From assembly GCA_964502225.1 (NCBI GenBank), contig CAZCUC010000002.1:9092-73091 (forward strand): a DNA stretch of 64,000 bases, given 5' to 3'. The notes below the pieces were generated by a model that had not been told where the DNA came from, did not search any database, and saw only the letters and a program-made list of their open reading frames with translations. Position numbers and translations under genes: made by a program. Shown here in pieces: positions 5,457 to 45,163 of the stretch (within the stretch, counting starts at the first letter, position 1; the number at the start of each line of letters is the position of its first letter). Source of the stretch: an uncultured Pseudomonadales bacterium (GTDB lineage Bacteria > Patescibacteriota > Microgenomatia > UBA1400 > UBA12108).

Positions 5457-5753
5457 CTACTTGCGAAGACCAAAGTAGAGCATGGCAAGGAGAATGATTT
5501 TGAAAAAGTATCCACTGTAGGGGTCGATGGCCAGCTTGGTGAGTGGAGTCATGTTGCCGGTAGCGAAGTGGAAAAGGATACTAATGGGCAAAACGAGGAG
5601 CATCCATTGCCAGTGAGTGAGCTGTCTACCTGTAAATGTGATTAGCTTGTTGAGAAGAGGCACAAGGAGATAAATCCCAAGATAGGCAGTAGAAAAATCA
5701 AAAACTGCCAAATTGCCAATACGGAAAGAGCGGAGATATTCAATAGTGATCAT
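5457..5753 (-). CDS. Small hydrophobic membrane protein at the distal end of the cop operon
   Basis: 98 aa with three predicted TM helices. Overlaps the copZ stop by 4 nt. Confidence 0.35.
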   Translation of the reverse strand: MITIEYLRSFRIGNLAVFDFSTAYLGIYLLVPLLNKLITFTGRQLTHWQWMLLVLPISILFHFATGNMTPLTKLAIDPYSGYFFKIILLAMLYFGLRK

Positions 5754-5989
5754 TTGACCACAGTATAGCCTAGTTTCTCGATTATTGTGGTGAACTTAGA
5801 GGGGGACGTGAGTTTGGGGTCGTATGTGATGACTGACTCTTGCTTGGCGTAGCTGGTAGAGGTCGAGATGACACCAGGGAGGTCCTCTAAATCAGAGTCG
5901 ATGTTTAGTGAGCATGAGCTACAGTGGAGGCCACTCAGTTTGAGAGTAACGGTCGTTCCAACTGATTTTTTCTTGAATAAATTAAACAT
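5750..5989 (-). CDS. copZ: Heavy-metal-associated (HMA) domain copper chaperone, CopZ-like
   Basis: LKLSGLHCSSCSLNI: GMxCxxC-type HMA metal-binding loop. Confidence 0.75.
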   Translation of the reverse strand: MFNLFKKKSVGTTVTLKLSGLHCSSCSLNIDSDLEDLPGVISTSTSYAKQESVITYDPKLTSPSKFTTIIEKLGYTVVK

Positions 5990-6407
5990 GAATTTTGTCC
6001 AAATCCTGATTAATTACGCGTACGTCTAGTGCTAAGAGCTCGTCTTTGTAAGCGGCGTCATCGCTAAATTGGTTCCACACAAATATTTTTTTGTTTAAGT
6101 GAAATGCAAGACCAATTTCCATCAGTACGTTGGGGCCAATATAGCCTATTATTCCGTTTTTCTCGTTGTTAATGACAAGAATAGCATCGGATGAGGCAAT
6201 ATTGTCAAAATTTTCTTTAATGTATAGACCCTTTTGCAGACTCGTAGTTCTACCCTTGAAATTTTCTACTACAAAGTCGTTTTTGGCTTTCATCGTTTTG
6301 GCGGAGACGGGGATATCGACCTCAAATCCTTTGGCGATGAGATCTGTTTCAACTTGTACTAGTTCTTTATAAAAATTCATGCTGGCGCAGAGGAAGATCT
6401 TGGTCAT
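5982..6407 (-). CDS. Nucleoside 2-deoxyribosyltransferase-like (Rossmann-like) protein
   Basis: KIFLCASM...DAILVINNEKNGIIGYIGPNVLMEIGLAF resembles the NDT/PF05014-like fold. It sits inside the cop operon and overlaps both neighbours. Confidence 0.4.
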   Translation of the reverse strand: MTKIFLCASMNFYKELVQVETDLIAKGFEVDIPVSAKTMKAKNDFVVENFKGRTTSLQKGLYIKENFDNIASSDAILVINNEKNGIIGYIGPNVLMEIGLAFHLNKKIFVWNQFSDDAAYKDELLALDVRVINQDLDKIHV

Positions 6408-38954: not shown

Positions 38955-39230
38955 CTGCCTTGGGTAGGTGGATGATCGGGCGAGTCGCAAGATGAGTCAG
39001 GAAAGTCCAGACAGCAGTGTGCGGGGTGGCTAGCGCAAGCTAGCACGGGTAACCGCTAGTTTAGAGCAACAGTGACGAATCCCTTTAGTGGGAGTGAAAC
39101 GGGCAATCCTCCCTGCTGCAACCGACGAATGGATCGACAAAGACGGACGCACACCCGAGATCCGAAGTTTGCGGGCATTAGAGAAATGATTATCTTAAAA
39201 ACAGAATCTGGCTTATGCCTACCCAAGGCA
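38955..39230 (+). ncRNA. rnpB: RNase P RNA (bacterial type, compact)
   Basis: P4 halves AGGAAAGTCCAGAC and ACAGAATCTGGCTTATGCC. P1 pairing GCCTTGGGTAGG (38957..38968) with CCTACCCAAGGC (39217..39228). Confidence 0.85.
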
Positions 39231-39239
39231 AACAAAAAT

Positions 39240-39833
39240 CTAGATAATTTCCTGGTATTTAGGGATCCCCTTTTGGCTATAATCTAGCATGACTAGGCCA
39301 CCCATGGGGATGTAGCGAATCTTGGAATTTTCAAATTCGTCAATCGTATGGGGAATCTTCTTCGTGAGGGTAGCGATTAAAAATATGGTTATTGGGTCAC
39401 CGTGTGAAACAAGTACGTGAGATGAGTGTTTACTCATTCCTTTAAGTTTTTCTACAAAAGTAGTGATGCGTGTAAAAATCGCTTCGGGGGATTCGCCGCC
39501 ATTTTTAAGATGTGCGGGAACGTCGTAAGGGTAATTGGGAGATAATTTGGCGAGTTGCGACTTAGATAATCCCTGTAGAGGAGTGCCCGTCTCGATTAGT
39601 TCTCCGTATTGGTTGGGGTGTAAACCTATTACGTGCCCGATTATGGTGGCTGTTTCAACACAGCGTTCAATCGGACTTGTGGAGAGTGAGCGAATTTTTT
39701 CTCCCAGTAGCTTATCTGCCTGAATGTTGGCTTGTTTTATCCCTAGCTCTGACAACGGAAATCCCGGCAGTTGATATGGAACCACGCTTTTTGGATTTTG
39801 GTACTCGCCGTGGCGTGCAAAATAAATTTTCAT
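39240..39833 (-). CDS. Histidine phosphatase family protein (phosphoglycerate mutase-like)
   Basis: MKIYFARHGE (RHG motif) and later LVSHGDPI. Confidence 0.7.
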   Translation of the reverse strand: MKIYFARHGEYQNPKSVVPYQLPGFPLSELGIKQANIQADKLLGEKIRSLSTSPIERCVETATIIGHVIGLHPNQYGELIETGTPLQGLSKSQLAKLSPNYPYDVPAHLKNGGESPEAIFTRITTFVEKLKGMSKHSSHVLVSHGDPITIFLIATLTKKIPHTIDEFENSKIRYIPMGGLVMLDYSQKGIPKYQEII

Positions 39834-40705
39834 TATTTAACCCGATGTGCGAGTTTGTCCCAGACAATCAGGAGTGGAGCGGCAGTGAAAGTCGAGGAGT
39901 AGGTGCCAGAAATTGTGCCGATAAGCAGGGCAAAAATAAACCATTTAGTGGTCTCACCACCAAGTAAATACATCGCTAGGAGCATGAATACGATGGTCAG
40001 TGAGTTGTTGATACTCCTCCCCATGGTCTCGACCACTGCGCGGTTAATAATGTCGTCATTTTCGAGGTAGCCATGCTTTTTCTTGAGTTCGCGAATGCGA
40101 TCGTAAACTACGATGGTATCGTGAACAGAAAAACTAAGGATGGTAAGCAGAGCTGTGACGAATAAAGTATCCACTTCTACTCCCCAATACCTCCCAATCA
40201 AACTAAAGATACCAAGCAAAACTAATGAGTCGTGAAGCATAGCTAGGATAGCCGAGACACCAAACTTGATATTTTTGAACCTGTAGGCAACATACAGCAA
40301 AATCATTGACGCCGCGAGGATGATGGCTGTGAGAGTTTTTGAGATCAACTCGCTACCCAGAGCTGGACCGACAGTGTCGTAGGATAGCTCGACGATATTG
40401 CCGAACTTGGTTTTGTAGTTCTGATAGGTGTCCTTTGCGATTGGAGCAGTGCTGATCGTCCAGACATTATTATTTTGTGATAAAGTGCGAATCTCAATCG
40501 AGGATTCGAGGGCATACTGACGAAGATAGTCTTCCTCTATTTCTCCCTGCCAGACAATGGTAGTGCCACCGGTAAAATCAATCGAAGGTTTGAGTCCGTA
40601 CTTGAGGAGTGAGTAAGATCCAGGGATGATGACAGTCAGCGAGATCAAGAAATAGAGCCACCAATATTTCATTGGCTGAAGGATATGTAGATGTTCACCA
40701 ATCAT
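39833..40705 (-). CDS. secF: Protein translocase subunit SecF
   Basis: Six TM helices with the SecD/F conserved C-terminal region. Start set at Met 40705 with a GGAGAA SD. Confidence 0.85.
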   Translation of the reverse strand: MIGEHLHILQPMKYWWLYFLISLTVIIPGSYSLLKYGLKPSIDFTGGTTIVWQGEIEEDYLRQYALESSIEIRTLSQNNNVWTISTAPIAKDTYQNYKTKFGNIVELSYDTVGPALGSELISKTLTAIILAASMILLYVAYRFKNIKFGVSAILAMLHDSLVLLGIFSLIGRYWGVEVDTLFVTALLTILSFSVHDTIVVYDRIRELKKKHGYLENDDIINRAVVETMGRSINNSLTIVFMLLAMYLLGGETTKWFIFALLIGTISGTYSSTFTAAPLLIVWDKLAHRVK

Positions 40706-40724: not shown

Positions 40725-42032
40725 TTATTTTTTAGTAAGTGCCCGTAGTAAGTTGCGTGTGACAAAGATGCCCGTAAAGAGTGAGATACAGATCCCGAGG
40801 AACAAAGTGAGCGCAAAGCCACGTACCATCCCCGAGCTATTGAGGAATGTCCAGTCGAGGGGGTTGAAAAGAATAAAAGTAGTGATCAAGGTGGCAATAT
40901 TGGCATCCTTGATTGCGTCCCAGGCTTTACCAAAACCAAGCTCCATACTACGCCTCCATTCATTACCTTTCCGGAGCTCTTCTTTCATACGTTCAAATAT
41001 CAAGATATTACTATCGACTGCCATCCCAATCGAGAGAATGAACCCAGCAAGGCCAGGTAGAGTAACCGTGATTGGAACCAGTTTGTACACTGCTAGCGTC
41101 AAGAGAGCATAGATCACTAGCCCAATATCTGCGACCAGTCCGAGCCAGCCGTAATTGAGGATCATAAAGAGCGCAACCAAACCCAATCCTACTAGACCTG
41201 CTGAGATGCTTTTACTGACACTCTCTGCACCCAGTGTAGGGGCGATATTCTGCTGTTTAATAATCTCGATCGGGACAGGGAGCGCGCCGGCATTTAAAGC
41301 AATGACTTTGTTTTTGGCATCTTCTACCGTAAACTCGCCATTAATCACAGCATTGCCATCGAGAATGGCTTGCTGGACAATGGGAGCTGTGAGTTCTTGC
41401 CCGTCAAGCAAGATCCAGACTGGTTTGCCAATATTGCGAGAGGTAATCTCCCCAAACTTTTTACCCCCCTCTGGTGTGAATTGGAGGGAAATTTCTGGTT
41501 TGCCGTTTTCGGGGTTGAAAGTGACGGCGGATTTTTTGAGGTCTTTGCCGGTCAAGCCAGTCGGTTTGAGATCGGCGTAGGTAGGACTGTCTGTAGCTAC
41601 TGGCAAGTCGTAGAAATCTAGGGAGGCAGTTTGTCCGATAAGATCGAGTGCTTCGTCTGGATTGCTGACACCAGGGAGCGCTACTAAAATGCGATAAGTG
41701 TCGTTGGTGACCAAGGTTTTGATTGATGGTTCGGCGACACCGTAGAGATCGACGCGGCGAGCGATGACTTCTTTGGCTGAATCGAGCGCGTCTTGGCGAT
41801 CTAGTGGGTCGACACCACTCATATCAGCGGCCAAAGTGACTTCTGTCCCACCCTGGAGATCTAGTCCCTGTTTGATGTCTAGCGAGCGGACGAAGCTACC
41901 GATTTTGATGGTAGGACTGGAGAGGACAAAACTGCGCTCACCCAGGTTAAGCGTATAGTTTTTGGGGGCATCGATAATGAGAGCCATGGCCGAGAGGAGA
42001 ATAATAAAGAAGATATTGCGTCGCAGTTTCAT
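40725..42032 (-). CDS. secD: Protein translocase subunit SecD
   Basis: N-terminal TM, large periplasmic domain, C-terminal six-TM SecD_SecF domain. Confidence 0.88.
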   Translation of the reverse strand: MKLRRNIFFIILLSAMALIIDAPKNYTLNLGERSFVLSSPTIKIGSFVRSLDIKQGLDLQGGTEVTLAADMSGVDPLDRQDALDSAKEVIARRVDLYGVAEPSIKTLVTNDTYRILVALPGVSNPDEALDLIGQTASLDFYDLPVATDSPTYADLKPTGLTGKDLKKSAVTFNPENGKPEISLQFTPEGGKKFGEITSRNIGKPVWILLDGQELTAPIVQQAILDGNAVINGEFTVEDAKNKVIALNAGALPVPIEIIKQQNIAPTLGAESVSKSISAGLVGLGLVALFMILNYGWLGLVADIGLVIYALLTLAVYKLVPITVTLPGLAGFILSIGMAVDSNILIFERMKEELRKGNEWRRSMELGFGKAWDAIKDANIATLITTFILFNPLDWTFLNSSGMVRGFALTLFLGICISLFTGIFVTRNLLRALTKK

Positions 42033-42070
42033 ATGATTAGTTTAAAGGTTAAAGGTGTAAGTGTATAGTC

Positions 42071-42256
42071 ACCCCGTTATTTCACATCTAGCTTTAGTTG
42101 TCTGGTTTGAGTGAATGAAGCTGAGAGGATTTGGGTAGTCTGATCGTAGGAGAGCTCGACCTCATCTCCCTCGTCCAGCGCGAGTGCTTTAATAACGATG
42201 CTTGGAATAATGATACCTTTGGAGTTGCCTATTTTGGTGATCTTGGTGGACATCAT
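42071..42256 (-). CDS. AbrB/MazE/SpoVT-domain small protein (61 aa), not in the ORF track
   Basis: Hand-translated minus strand: MMSTKITKIGNSKGIIIPSIVIKALALDEGDEVELSYDQTTQILSASFTQTRQLKLDVK*. The KIGNSxGxxIP looped-hinge motif is present. Its ATG overlaps the upstream gene stop (ATGA). Confidence 0.6.
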
Positions 42257-42834
42257 GCCACAAGCTCCTCTTCGTCGCCTACTACCATCACTCTAGAGGC
42301 TTCGAGAATACGGCCAATAAAGGGGTCGTTGTGAGTCTTGCGATAGGAGAGCTCGGCTTCGGTCATGACCGTGTAGTTGATTTCCCGGGACAATTTGGCT
42401 TCTTGCTCCTTGATGAGCTCGGTAAGCTGGGGCATGATCAAATCGCCAACTAGGAGGAGATCGACTGTATCTTTGGCTCTAGGCATGTGGCGGACAAAAC
42501 GACCAGAAACCATGGCAAATTTGAGTTTGCCGAGCTTGGGAGCAGATTTGGTAATAGCCAAGCCTAGACCGGTAGTTTTACCGATCATACTCATAAGCTC
42601 TTTGTGAAAAAGGTAGTTTTTATTAAAAGTGTAGTAGATGCGATTGCCACGCTTTTCGTCTTTGACCATACCCACACTCTGCATATGGATCAATTCGCGT
42701 CTGACAGCATTGATTTCCTCGTCCAGTTTGCGGGTGAGCTCGCGGATGTAAAACATTTGCTCAGGATGAATCAGGAAAACTTCGAGAAGTTTGACGCGTA
42801 CTTTAGAAACAACAAAGTCAGATAGACTAGCCAT
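42253..42834 (-). CDS. Winged-HTH fused to a minimal nucleotidyltransferase (MNT, Pol-beta-like) domain
   Basis: N-terminal wHTH (FYIRELTRKLDEEINAVRRELIHMQSVGMV). C-terminal MVSGRFVRHMPRAKDTVDLLLVGD matches GS-x9-13-(D/S)DxDLLV of MNT nucleotidyltransferases. Confidence 0.5.
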   Translation of the reverse strand: MASLSDFVVSKVRVKLLEVFLIHPEQMFYIRELTRKLDEEINAVRRELIHMQSVGMVKDEKRGNRIYYTFNKNYLFHKELMSMIGKTTGLGLAITKSAPKLGKLKFAMVSGRFVRHMPRAKDTVDLLLVGDLIMPQLTELIKEQEAKLSREINYTVMTEAELSYRKTHNDPFIGRILEASRVMVVGDEEELVA

Positions 42835-42885
42835 GCTTCAATTGTATAACAAAAATACTCGAACACAATAGGTGTACGACCTACC

Positions 42886-44085
42886 CTAGTACTCGACCTC
42901 GTTGTCGAGAGGGAGAATTTCGAAGACAATCTTGCCTCGATTGAAAGCGAGCGCTTTGCCTTTGGCATCTTTCCAGATAGTCTTGGCTTCACGATCTTTC
43001 TTGGACCAAGTAGCCTCGGTGGCTAGACCATCTTGGAAAACAATTCCCTTGCCAGTCCCGATCAATTCGTAAAGCATGTGCTTGTGTTCATCTAGGGGCC
43101 CTAGCTCTTTGGTGAACTGAACCACGACCACTTTGGCGGATAGCTGAGAGTCGTCGTTTAAGTCTTTGTGAGCGAGACCACCGTTTTCACGAGTGTAAGC
43201 ATTTTTAGCAGAGTCATAATTCCAGACTACATCGTAGTCATGGTAGCTCTCCCAGAATCCAAATGCGATTTTGGCAATTGAGCCTTTGTCTTTGGCGTCG
43301 TCTTTGAATGTGAATGGAGTGTATTTGTCAGACCACTCGGTCTTGCCATCGGGAGTTTTGTTGGTCCATCCCCTGGTACCAGCGGCATACTTCCAGAGCT
43401 TTTCGGTGCTTGTGTACATGGTGTGTTCGGTGGCAACAGTCCGGCCTAGACGCTCGTAGTCACGCCAGAAAGTGGGGAAACCGATTGAGAACTGGTTGAG
43501 ATCGTTACCCTTGGCTCCACCCCAGCCATACTGATTGATTTGCTCGAGAGCCTGGACACGCTTGTCGGTGTTGCAAGTTTTGGGATCGCTAGAGCCACAG
43601 TTGGCACCCCCGACGTGAGTATAGAGTGGATAGTTGTACTCTGAAGCGGCGTTGATAAAGTGTGTCCTGGCACTACGAACCGGTCCCAAGATTGTGTCTT
43701 TGGCGGCGACACCACAGTAGAAGACAGCACCAAAGCGAGATACCCCACCCTCGGCAACGGCTTCGTAGATGATGTCGGCTGAGCCGAGACCAGATTGTGG
43801 GCGGGCATCAGGCGTGTTTTCGATCATGACAAAAAGCGGGCGGCGAGATTCCCAGACTTTTTTCTCTGCGGTTGTGTACATGACACCATTGATTGGGCAC
43901 TCTGAAGTACGTGGGGCAGATGGATCAATATTCAAGCCACCACCAACGGGAGGAGTGGCAACTGGAGTGAGAGCACCACCTGATTCGGGTGAGTAGAGGT
44001 AATTGGTCAAAGCATAACTTGCGCCCCCAGAGAGGGAGAAAGCGAGGACGAAAACCAAGATACCTTTAACGAGTGGATTTTGCAT
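42886..44085 (-). CDS. DUF3048-domain secreted/lipoprotein (YerB-like)
   Basis: Signal peptide. PLFVMIENTPDARPQSGLGSADIIYEAVAEGGVSRFGAVFY matches the DUF3048 core. Confidence 0.6.
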   Translation of the reverse strand: MQNPLVKGILVFVLAFSLSGGASYALTNYLYSPESGGALTPVATPPVGGGLNIDPSAPRTSECPINGVMYTTAEKKVWESRRPLFVMIENTPDARPQSGLGSADIIYEAVAEGGVSRFGAVFYCGVAAKDTILGPVRSARTHFINAASEYNYPLYTHVGGANCGSSDPKTCNTDKRVQALEQINQYGWGGAKGNDLNQFSIGFPTFWRDYERLGRTVATEHTMYTSTEKLWKYAAGTRGWTNKTPDGKTEWSDKYTPFTFKDDAKDKGSIAKIAFGFWESYHDYDVVWNYDSAKNAYTRENGGLAHKDLNDDSQLSAKVVVVQFTKELGPLDEHKHMLYELIGTGKGIVFQDGLATEATWSKKDREAKTIWKDAKGKALAFNRGKIVFEILPLDNEVEY

Positions 44086-44087
44086 AT

Positions 44088-44558
44088 TTATTTGCCCTTT
44101 CGATTAATTGTTTTTTGTTCTTCTTCAGAGAGAGGATGATCTATGCCAACCCCACCTTTGACTGATTTTACATAGAATCGCGTATTTTCTCTACTATGTA
44201 GAGATGTTATCACTACCCCGTCTTTATTGCCATCGAGGATTGCTAAGATAAAGCTTTGATCGCCACCGGTGTCACCAAAGGGATTAAATCGCTTCATGGT
44301 CAAATTTTGCAGGTGGAGTATGCTGTGCTCCTTTTGTTTTTGGAGCTCTGATCTACTTACCTCTAGCTGTCGCTCGTGCTGAGATAGAGAATGCTGGATA
44401 CCTTGGAGAGCATTCATCAGAGTTTTGGGATCAACTCCCTTGGTGAGTGAGTTGTAGTGTAGGCGCAACTTGCGGATAGAGAGGAAAAGAACGAGATTGA
44501 GAAGCAAGGACAAGATCCCGATACTGCCCACAATGATAGTGTCTAGCGTAAATTGCAT
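44088..44558 (-). CDS. DUF4446-family membrane-anchored protein
   Basis: N-terminal TM, coiled-coil, then RFNPFGDTGGDQSFILAILDGNKDGVVITSL characteristic of DUF4446. Confidence 0.6.
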   Translation of the reverse strand: MQFTLDTIIVGSIGILSLLLNLVLFLSIRKLRLHYNSLTKGVDPKTLMNALQGIQHSLSQHERQLEVSRSELQKQKEHSILHLQNLTMKRFNPFGDTGGDQSFILAILDGNKDGVVITSLHSRENTRFYVKSVKGGVGIDHPLSEEEQKTINRKGK

Positions 44559-44584: not shown

Positions 44585-45163
44585 ATGGCATATCTCGAAT
44601 TTGAGAGCGCACCCGCTTCGGTTAAAACTGGGGCGATCATCAAGATAATCTCCCTCTTTGGATTTGCGATCGTATTTGGTATTTTCTTTTTGGTGAGAGG
44701 ACTTTTCTTTAAATCGAGAGTCAATCAAGTTTCTGTGACTGACTCCTTTGGCAAACTAGAATACACCGTGCCCTACAAAAATACCCTTTATGAAAGTTTT
44801 GGATTTGTACAAGAGCCAAAGGTAACGATGCCACTCAAGACTACCAATGGTTATGTAAATACGACTTTCTTGCTGGATTCTGGTGCAGTGGTTACTACCC
44901 TACCACTCCAAGCCGCGCAAGATACGGGAGCGGACTTGGCGCAAGCCAAACGGATTACCCTCCAAGGATTCTCTGGGGTACCCGCTTTTGCTTACCTGTC
45001 TAAAGTCACAATTAAAATCGGCAATACCGACTATGAGCTACCGGCTACTTTTACCGAATCTAACTCGACCACCTATATCCTCGGACGCAAGGGCTTGTTT
45101 GATGACTTTACTATCAACTTTGATCACGAAGAAAGAATGATTACAATCAGTAAAAGGAGTTAA
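44585..45163 (+). CDS. Membrane-anchored retropepsin-like (clan AA) aspartic protease
   Basis: N-terminal TM, then FLLDSGAVVTTLP (DSGA catalytic motif) and a second GADL region. Confidence 0.65.
   Translation: MAYLEFESAPASVKTGAIIKIISLFGFAIVFGIFFLVRGLFFKSRVNQVSVTDSFGKLEYTVPYKNTLYESFGFVQEPKVTMPLKTTNGYVNTTFLLDSGAVVTTLPLQAAQDTGADLAQAKRITLQGFSGVPAFAYLSKVTIKIGNTDYELPATFTESNSTTYILGRKGLFDDFTINFDHEERMITISKRS

Follow-up and report, generated by a model that had tools for sequence, protein, structure and literature searches.

The present work concerns two overlapping genes that lie directly upstream of secD in a 64-kb stretch of DNA from contig CAZCUC010000002.1. This whole stretch is referred to as the window; all positions are numbered along it, and the two genes, secD, secF and the DUF-family genes discussed below are all on its minus strand. 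The first gene (42253–42834) encodes a protein of 193 residues, identified by open reading frame (ORF) calling, homologues, a profile match and a structural model, in which an ArsR-like winged helix is joined to a degenerate domain related to the minimal nucleotidyltransferases (MNTs), and which is a relative, lacking a HEPN partner, of PDC-M05A, a component of the PADLOC candidate defence system PDC-M05. The second gene (42077–42256) encodes a protein of 59 residues with an AbrB/MazE/SpoVT domain. A first-pass annotation of this DNA had reported two same-strand ORFs coupled through an ATGA overlap of stop and start, and both are present, the overlap being read directly from the bases at 42253–42256 (the upstream gene ends GCA-TGA and the downstream gene starts ATG-ATG-TCC). 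It had also given the smaller protein 61 residues and placed secD 38 nucleotides away, values which are corrected here to 59 residues and to a spacer of 44 nucleotides that separates the stop codon of AbrB from the start of secD (42033–42076). The secDF genes do come next on the same strand, as had been claimed: secD (40725–42032) matches TIGR01129 (E = 7.9e-106) and the Pfam domains SecD_1st, SecDF_P1_head and SecD_SecF_C, and secF (39833–40705), which has 290 residues counted from the ATG at 40705, matches PF02355 (E = 5.8e-49) and Sec_GG.

When the 193-residue protein is compared on its own with Pfam and NCBIfam, only weak winged-helix matches are obtained. The winged helix-turn-helix domain occupies approximately residues 8–74 (42613–42813), and a domain with the nucleotidyltransferase fold, together with a conserved C-terminal extension, occupies approximately residues 101–193 (42256–42534). 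The call of a nucleotidyltransferase domain in the first-pass annotation was correct, since PF01909 matches 35 and PF18765 matches 33 of 75 diverse members of the family. The AlphaFold2 model of the protein has a pLDDT (predicted local distance difference test score) of 84; the C-terminal domain has a minimal nucleotidyltransferase (Pol-beta-like) fold, and its best structural match is an MNT antitoxin. A sequence search of PDB chains gave nothing significant for the protein, and an exact-sequence look-up returned no record. Its homologues number 4689, and the closest are all 193 residues long and belong to Microgenomates-group bacteria of the Candidate Phyla Radiation (CPR). At E<=1e-3, an exhaustive search of representative sequences yielded 3601 clusters, which share the architecture of about 190 residues and reach down to 28% identity; at E<=1e-10 there are 1355 clusters.

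A further comparison is with the winged-helix repressors of the ArsR/SmtB family, which are often encoded at the head of the operons that they regulate. The 193-residue protein resembles them in its weak NCBIfam ArsR matches and in the position of its gene, which is the first after a promoter-like element. The matches reach only 23.5 bits compared with a family cut-off of 55, and the C-terminal half is a nucleotidyltransferase fold, not the usual helical dimer interface alone. The protein also contains no cysteine, and it therefore has no cysteine-based metal or metalloid site of the alpha3N or ArsR CXC type.

In the family alignment, the position of the catalytic GS is occupied by G111-R112 and that of the DxD by T123-V124-D125, so that the signature, in which GR replaces GS and TxD replaces DxD, is degenerate rather than minimal. 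The active-site segment so eroded, as defined by the family alignment and column counts, covers residues 110–130 (S-G-R-F-V-R-H-M-P-R-A-K-D-T-V-D-L-L-L-V-G; 42445–42507). The signature GS...DTVDLLLVGD given by the first-pass annotation is accordingly borne out in its second half, which is present as written, while its GS is really V-S-G-R-F. Across 30 sequences of 67–95% identity, where the mean column identity is 80%, no variation is seen at G111, R112, D122, V124 or D125, T123 is conserved in at least 90%, and both replacements are fixed in the window's clade. The arginines R112, R115 and R119 of the intervening loop are likewise invariant there, and the recognition helix, EEINAVRREL, does not vary within the close clade. 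Among the 75 diverse family members, D125 is kept in 71 and E151 in 60. The GS position is highly variable in the wider degenerate clade, where it reads SLS, TRR, SKN, TEN and others. The ratio of nonsynonymous to synonymous substitution rates (dN/dS) of the gene is 0.02–0.05; the gene is under very strong purifying selection and is vertically inherited.

The family alignment separates two groups of sequences, one with the canonical motif Y-G-S...S-D-I-D and one in which the motif has been lost, to which the 193-residue protein belongs, and 39 of the 41 degenerate sequences form a single clade in a neighbour-joining tree, with no canonical member inside it. The canonical relatives are accompanied in four of five distinct genomic contexts by an overlapping downstream HEPN gene (PF05168) of about 141–149 residues; in the fifth, which lies inside a toxin-antitoxin island, the downstream gene looks decayed. 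The PDC-M05A profile PDLC04368 matches the 193-residue protein itself over almost its full length (E = 2.8e-39, residues 2–191 against profile positions 4–195 of 201), and the HEPN neighbours of the canonical relatives match PDC-M05B (E = 1e-17 to 1e-32). Since the canonical relatives keep GS...DxD and have an overlapping HEPN gene of the PDC-M05B type, they represent HEPN/MNT toxin-antitoxin or defence modules, and the link to MNT antitoxins proposed in the first-pass annotation is supported through them. The PDC-M05 system consists of a nucleotidyltransferase and a HEPN protein, has a toxin-antitoxin-like architecture and is enriched in archaea (PMC12988326); its M05A component combines an ArsR-like HTH with an NT_KNTase_like (KNTase-like nucleotidyltransferase) domain, and one example of the system shielded E. 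coli from at least one phage (PMC12881386). The 193-residue protein would thus be a descendant, or a sister, of the PDC-M05A winged-helix-MNT antitoxin family, as judged from these sequence relationships.

The genomic setting of the degenerate protein was mapped by a scan of one genome per species, using a narrower alignment because the 75-sequence alignment is too diverse for locus scanning. At least 585 genomes matched, and the counts that follow come from the best 80 loci, all of which belong to Microgenomates-type CPR bacteria (Woese-, Chisholm-, Gottesman-, Shapiro-, Collier-, Ames-, Beckwith- and Pacebacteria). In every one of the 79 loci with downstream DNA, secD lies directly 3' on the same strand, and secF follows secD in 71/73. 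A DUF3048-family gene lies upstream in 77/80 loci and a DUF4446-family gene is kept upstream of it in most; in the window these are the genes at 42886–44085 (PF11258, E = 5.5e-31; PF17479, E = 1.8e-22) and at 44088–44558 (PF14584, E = 2.2e-31), the latter being the first gene of the conserved block. The order DUF4446-DUF3048-193-residue gene-[AbrB]-secD-secF thus holds across identities of 49–95%, and the locus is not patchy or mobile. Where the AbrB gene is absent, the 193-residue gene abuts secD with a gap that is mostly between -23 and +75 nucleotides. The first-pass annotation had seen no recognisable toxin and had advised a search for toxin partners in the neighbourhoods of homologues; the search finds HEPN genes beside the canonical relatives, and beside none of the 79 window-type loci, in which the downstream gene is AbrB or secD throughout. 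Within the 64-kb window no HEPN is detected by profile or by tblastn, and no HEPN, PIN, MazF or Doc gene is found in the neighbourhood or the window. The rare insertions between the orthologue and secD (in loci L037, L149 and L123) contain no toxin and only unrelated genes, and the gap at L072 is an assembly gap. No paralogue of either gene occurs in the window.

The 59-residue AbrB ORF is a real gene. It contains the SpoVT/AbrB swapped-hairpin domain (PF04014, E = 4.7e-8, with 33.3 bits where the gathering threshold is 24.7), in agreement with its first assignment to the AbrB/MazE type, and it can no longer be described as unannotated, since an identical protein carrying PF04014 is on record (P0121), gene calling in relatives picks up the ORF too, and its homologues are named AbrB, MazE or SpoVT by NCBI. 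A search limited by its word index found 135 homologues, of which P0121 is the one that is identical. Against five relatives the dN/dS of the gene is 0.05–0.17, with synonymous sites near saturation. The first-pass annotation had allowed that the small ORF might not be conserved; both genes prove to be conserved across many genomes and to be under purifying selection, more than would be expected by chance. The AbrB gene lies between the 193-residue orthologue and secD in 37 of the 79 loci and is absent from the other 42. In the window's own clade it is present in 13/13 loci, with the same four-nucleotide overlap (ATGA or GTGA) in ten of them. Its presence follows clades on the protein tree, on which parsimony gives ten changes and a root state of "present", and this suggests an ancestral gene that has been lost repeatedly; the gene looks, from this distribution, ancestral and yet dispensable.

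The domain of the 59-residue protein scores above the gathering threshold of a family that includes antitoxins of the MazE/ChpS/Phd type as well as small archaeal AbrB regulators. Its sequence matches in the PDB, none of them significant, are to small AbrB-family regulators and to MazE. The protein differs from the antitoxins in several ways, however: it has no toxin partner, it has a conserved place in a housekeeping operon, and it falls below the cut-off of every NCBIfam antitoxin equivalog, the best being an antidote family. In addition, it has only about 15 residues after the domain, ending in (K/R)QLxL, a motif kept across lineages, compared with the long toxin-binding tail of MazE-type antitoxins.

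The comparison of the locus with the systems to which its parts are related shows both what has been retained and what has been lost. With PDC-M05 the 193-residue protein shares the full-length M05A match, the two-domain architecture of about 190 residues and the conserved C-terminal extension, but the window has no M05B, the GS and the first aspartate are replaced, the locus is fixed in the secDF operon rather than patchy, and the slot usually occupied by HEPN is filled by the AbrB gene or by secD itself. With the type VII HEPN/MNT systems (MntA/HepT; Shewanella SO_3165/SO_3166, PDB 5yep) it shares the C-terminal MNT fold, with an MNT antitoxin as best structural match, and the gene arrangement, since the 193-residue gene is 5' and shares bases with the gene that follows, like MNT and HEPN in dyads where the MNT gene comes first and serves as the antitoxin (PMC3710099). 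In these systems the MNT antitoxin acts by adenylylating (AMPylating) the toxin, for which the GSx(n)DxD motif is needed (PMC7641770), whereas in the 193-residue protein that motif is not intact, an extra N-terminal winged helix is present, there is no HEPN toxin, and the behaviour of the gene is that of a housekeeping gene. Because the motif is eroded, a HEPN partner is lacking and the synteny is of a fixed housekeeping kind, it is concluded with high confidence that the two genes are not a toxin-antitoxin pair. The novel toxin-antitoxin-like pair suggested as one possibility in the first-pass annotation is therefore rejected, and so is a working pair.

The identity of the 193-residue protein is also assigned with high confidence: it is a catalytically eroded winged-helix-MNT homologue of PDC-M05A, without HEPN, that is fixed in the block DUF4446-DUF3048-X-[AbrB]-secDF, in which X is its own gene. 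The fuller reading favoured here, that this domesticated and toxin-less homologue now serves as the DNA-binding first gene of the secDF operon, is considered probable, though not strongly so. Its position in the transcription unit is indicated by a promoter-like element, TTGTGT-16 nucleotides-TACAAT (42841–42868, minus strand), which was recognized by sequence reading as a consensus match, which a stricter promoter scan did not flag, and which stops six nucleotides 5' of the ATG of the 193-residue gene. Because this element directly precedes it, the 193-residue gene is likely, at the level of a consensus match, to be the first gene of the secDF-containing unit, and because the element ends so close to the ATG, the mRNA may be leaderless. 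The TGTnTACAAT part is kept in close relatives (L008–L013, L015 and L024), some of which retain the short distance to the ATG, suggesting a leaderless start, and others of which insert a Shine-Dalgarno leader. No terminator is predicted between the genes of the operon, the counts from the promoter and terminator scans being not above those of shuffled controls, and no Rfam family was found in the operon region.

The mechanism proposed with moderate confidence is one of DNA binding and autoregulation of the secDF-containing unit. The 193-residue protein would dimerize, and its ArsR-like winged helix would bind the promoter-like element just 5' of its own start codon; the bound protein would then set the transcription of [193-residue gene]-[abrB]-secD-secF in the manner of a repressor-first operon or an autoregulating antitoxin. 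Such a regulator-first layout is typical of ArsR-type repressors and autoregulating antitoxins. The dead nucleotidyltransferase domain would be retained as a module for dimerization, sensing or the binding of a ligand or partner, and the AbrB protein would act as a second, small DNA-binding protein and an optional co-regulator.

Two further sequence elements were observed near these start codons. A TATAC(A/T) hexamer resembling a -10 element, present in the window as TATACA at 42062–42067, recurs in the pre-secD spacers of L010, L013, L015 and L018, often 8–12 nucleotides from the ATG, and on this weak, consensus-level evidence secD may have its own promoter too in some genomes, possibly with a leaderless mRNA; in other genomes the pre-secD spacer is just 6–8 nucleotides long and has no room for a promoter. 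The motif CTGCC(C), which is absent in the window's clade, occurs between -45 and -8 of the 193-residue orthologues in 44 of 66 distant Microgenomates loci, compared with about 2.4 expected; of other gene starts, only some 2% carry it. It is placed 12–26 nucleotides 5' of the orthologue start codon in L021–L086, with about nine copies falling within the end of the DUF3048 coding region, and it sometimes appears again right before secD. One possible role of the motif is that of an operator half-site recognized by the conserved winged helix. A CTGCCC hairpin masking the ribosome-binding site was rejected, since the folds, at -3 to -5 kcal/mol, are weak and do not surpass those of shuffled sequences.

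Several points weigh against the favoured reading. The regulatory role is one that we infer solely from the type of the domains and the order of the genes, the trees were built crudely by neighbour joining, and neither inverted or direct repeats nor an operator were found in the two short spacers of the window. Inactivity of the nucleotidyltransferase domain is likewise read from the motif alone, while D125 and E151 are still in place and D122 might stand in for the aspartate that has gone. A constraint on the proposed link to secDF comes from a sister CPR clade (P0264-like; L092–L102), which emerged when a metagenome scan was started from a degenerate family member more distant from the window's, and whose proteins are 32–42% identical to the 193-residue protein. 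In all seven of its loci with enough upstream DNA, the orthologue comes right after recA; neither secD nor DUF3048 is near it, and the downstream genes vary. Linkage to secDF is therefore a feature of the Microgenomates-type lineage alone, it could be historical synteny, and the protein could be a more general factor. The operon layout would fit the other suggestion of the first-pass annotation, a regulator dedicated to the Sec operon, but that role is unproven, and it is weakened by this recA-linked clade.

The sister clade has additional features of its own. In L092–L101 the conserved block consists of a holA-like gene, a gene for a secreted SH3-domain protein, recA and then the orthologue. 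In two loci inverted repeats overlap a TATATAAT box just 5' of the orthologue (CTGCTAAT...ATTAGCAG in L096 and TTAGTTAATTA...TAATTAGCTAA in L092), and these could be operators. In one locus, L093, a 260-residue protein encoded directly 3' of the degenerate orthologue (5617–6399, plus strand) reads as a putative fusion of a HEPN-like N-terminus to a canonical GS...DxD nucleotidyltransferase.

The alternative that survives best, which is regarded as unlikely, is that the 193-residue protein acts globally as a conserved factor that binds DNA (or RNA) and has no specific tie to secDF. It would then be a core regulator of CPR bacteria or a protein of the nucleoid type, and its place before secD would be inherited gene order in a compact genome. 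The variable, secD-free surroundings of the orthologue after recA are what such a factor would be expected to show, as are the large size of the family and the conservation of the recognition-helix core INAVRREL across lineages with different neighbours. Set against this are the 79 genomes, spanning 49–95% identity, in which the gene is never parted from secD and the junctions often measure 0–30 nucleotides or overlap, and the promoter-like element at the 5' end of the gene, by which it comes to head a secDF-containing unit.

A second alternative, which is tentative and held to be improbable, is that the two proteins form a switch rewired from a HEPN/MNT module, in which the dead nucleotidyltransferase domain keeps its partner surface and binds either the AbrB protein, at its conserved (K/R)QLxL tail, or a nucleotide signal through its own invariant arginine-rich loop, and both proteins tune secDF and envelope genes in the ultra-small CPR bacteria. 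It is doubtful to a still greater degree that the domain is an active, non-canonical nucleotidyltransferase which uses D122, D125 and E151 together with the arginine-rich loop to modify AbrB, SecD/SecF, DUF3048 or a small molecule. The retained fold, the wide conservation of D125 and E151, and the invariance of D122 and of the three loop arginines in the clade are all in keeping with an enzyme, but the serine of the GS and the first metal-binding aspartate are gone in the window's clade, the variability of the GS position across the wider degenerate clade is unexpected for an active site, and no HEPN-like partner that might bind substrate is present. Least credible, and judged very unlikely, is a functional toxin-antitoxin or defence module, with two antitoxin-like genes guarding an unrecognized toxin or an AbrB protein paired with a toxin in trans, since the antitoxin-typical character of both domains, the PDC-M05A match, the operon-like overlap and the sub-threshold antidote match of the small ORF are opposed by the absence of HEPN, PIN, MazF and Doc genes, by rare and toxin-free insertions, by a fixed, vertically inherited and non-mobile locus, by the loss of AbrB from about half of the genomes while the 193-residue gene stays, by the low dN/dS of that gene and by the short AbrB tail.

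The remaining neighbours of the block are ordinary: a histidine phosphatase, an EamA transporter, a CCA-adding enzyme, BacA, a TIG-domain protein and an aspartyl-protease-like protein. The last is a divergently transcribed, retropepsin-like protein of 192 residues (44585–45163, plus strand; PF13975, E = 4.8e-7) with an N-terminal membrane segment, and its gene adjoins the secDF block in relatives too. Between the EamA and histidine-phosphatase genes lies a match of 271 nucleotides (38960–39230, plus strand) to the bacterial class A RNase P RNA, which covers the entire 367-position model. It scores 80.2 bits (E = 1.3e-24) where the gathering score is 100, and it appears to be an RNase P RNA of reduced size. 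Many of the records that carry the CPR-type locus (L008, L011–L014, L030–L034 and many others) have as their title either "uncultured Pseudomonadales bacterium" or "uncultured Gammaproteobacteria bacterium", and these titles look like wrong or placeholder taxonomy.

The locus is not a new toxin-antitoxin system. What it would document is a toxin-antitoxin or defence component, PDC-M05A, that lost its toxin partner and its catalytic residues and then settled, strongly conserved and passed on vertically, into a housekeeping operon of an entire CPR lineage. The M05A profile matches such housekeeping genes at E values of 1e-39, and defence annotation based on it therefore calls for caution. If the two-protein switch were correct, a component of defence or toxin-antitoxin systems would have been turned into a core regulator of protein export. 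To our knowledge almost no regulators have been characterized in CPR organisms, and the 193-residue protein offers a candidate, testable regulator of secDF for them.
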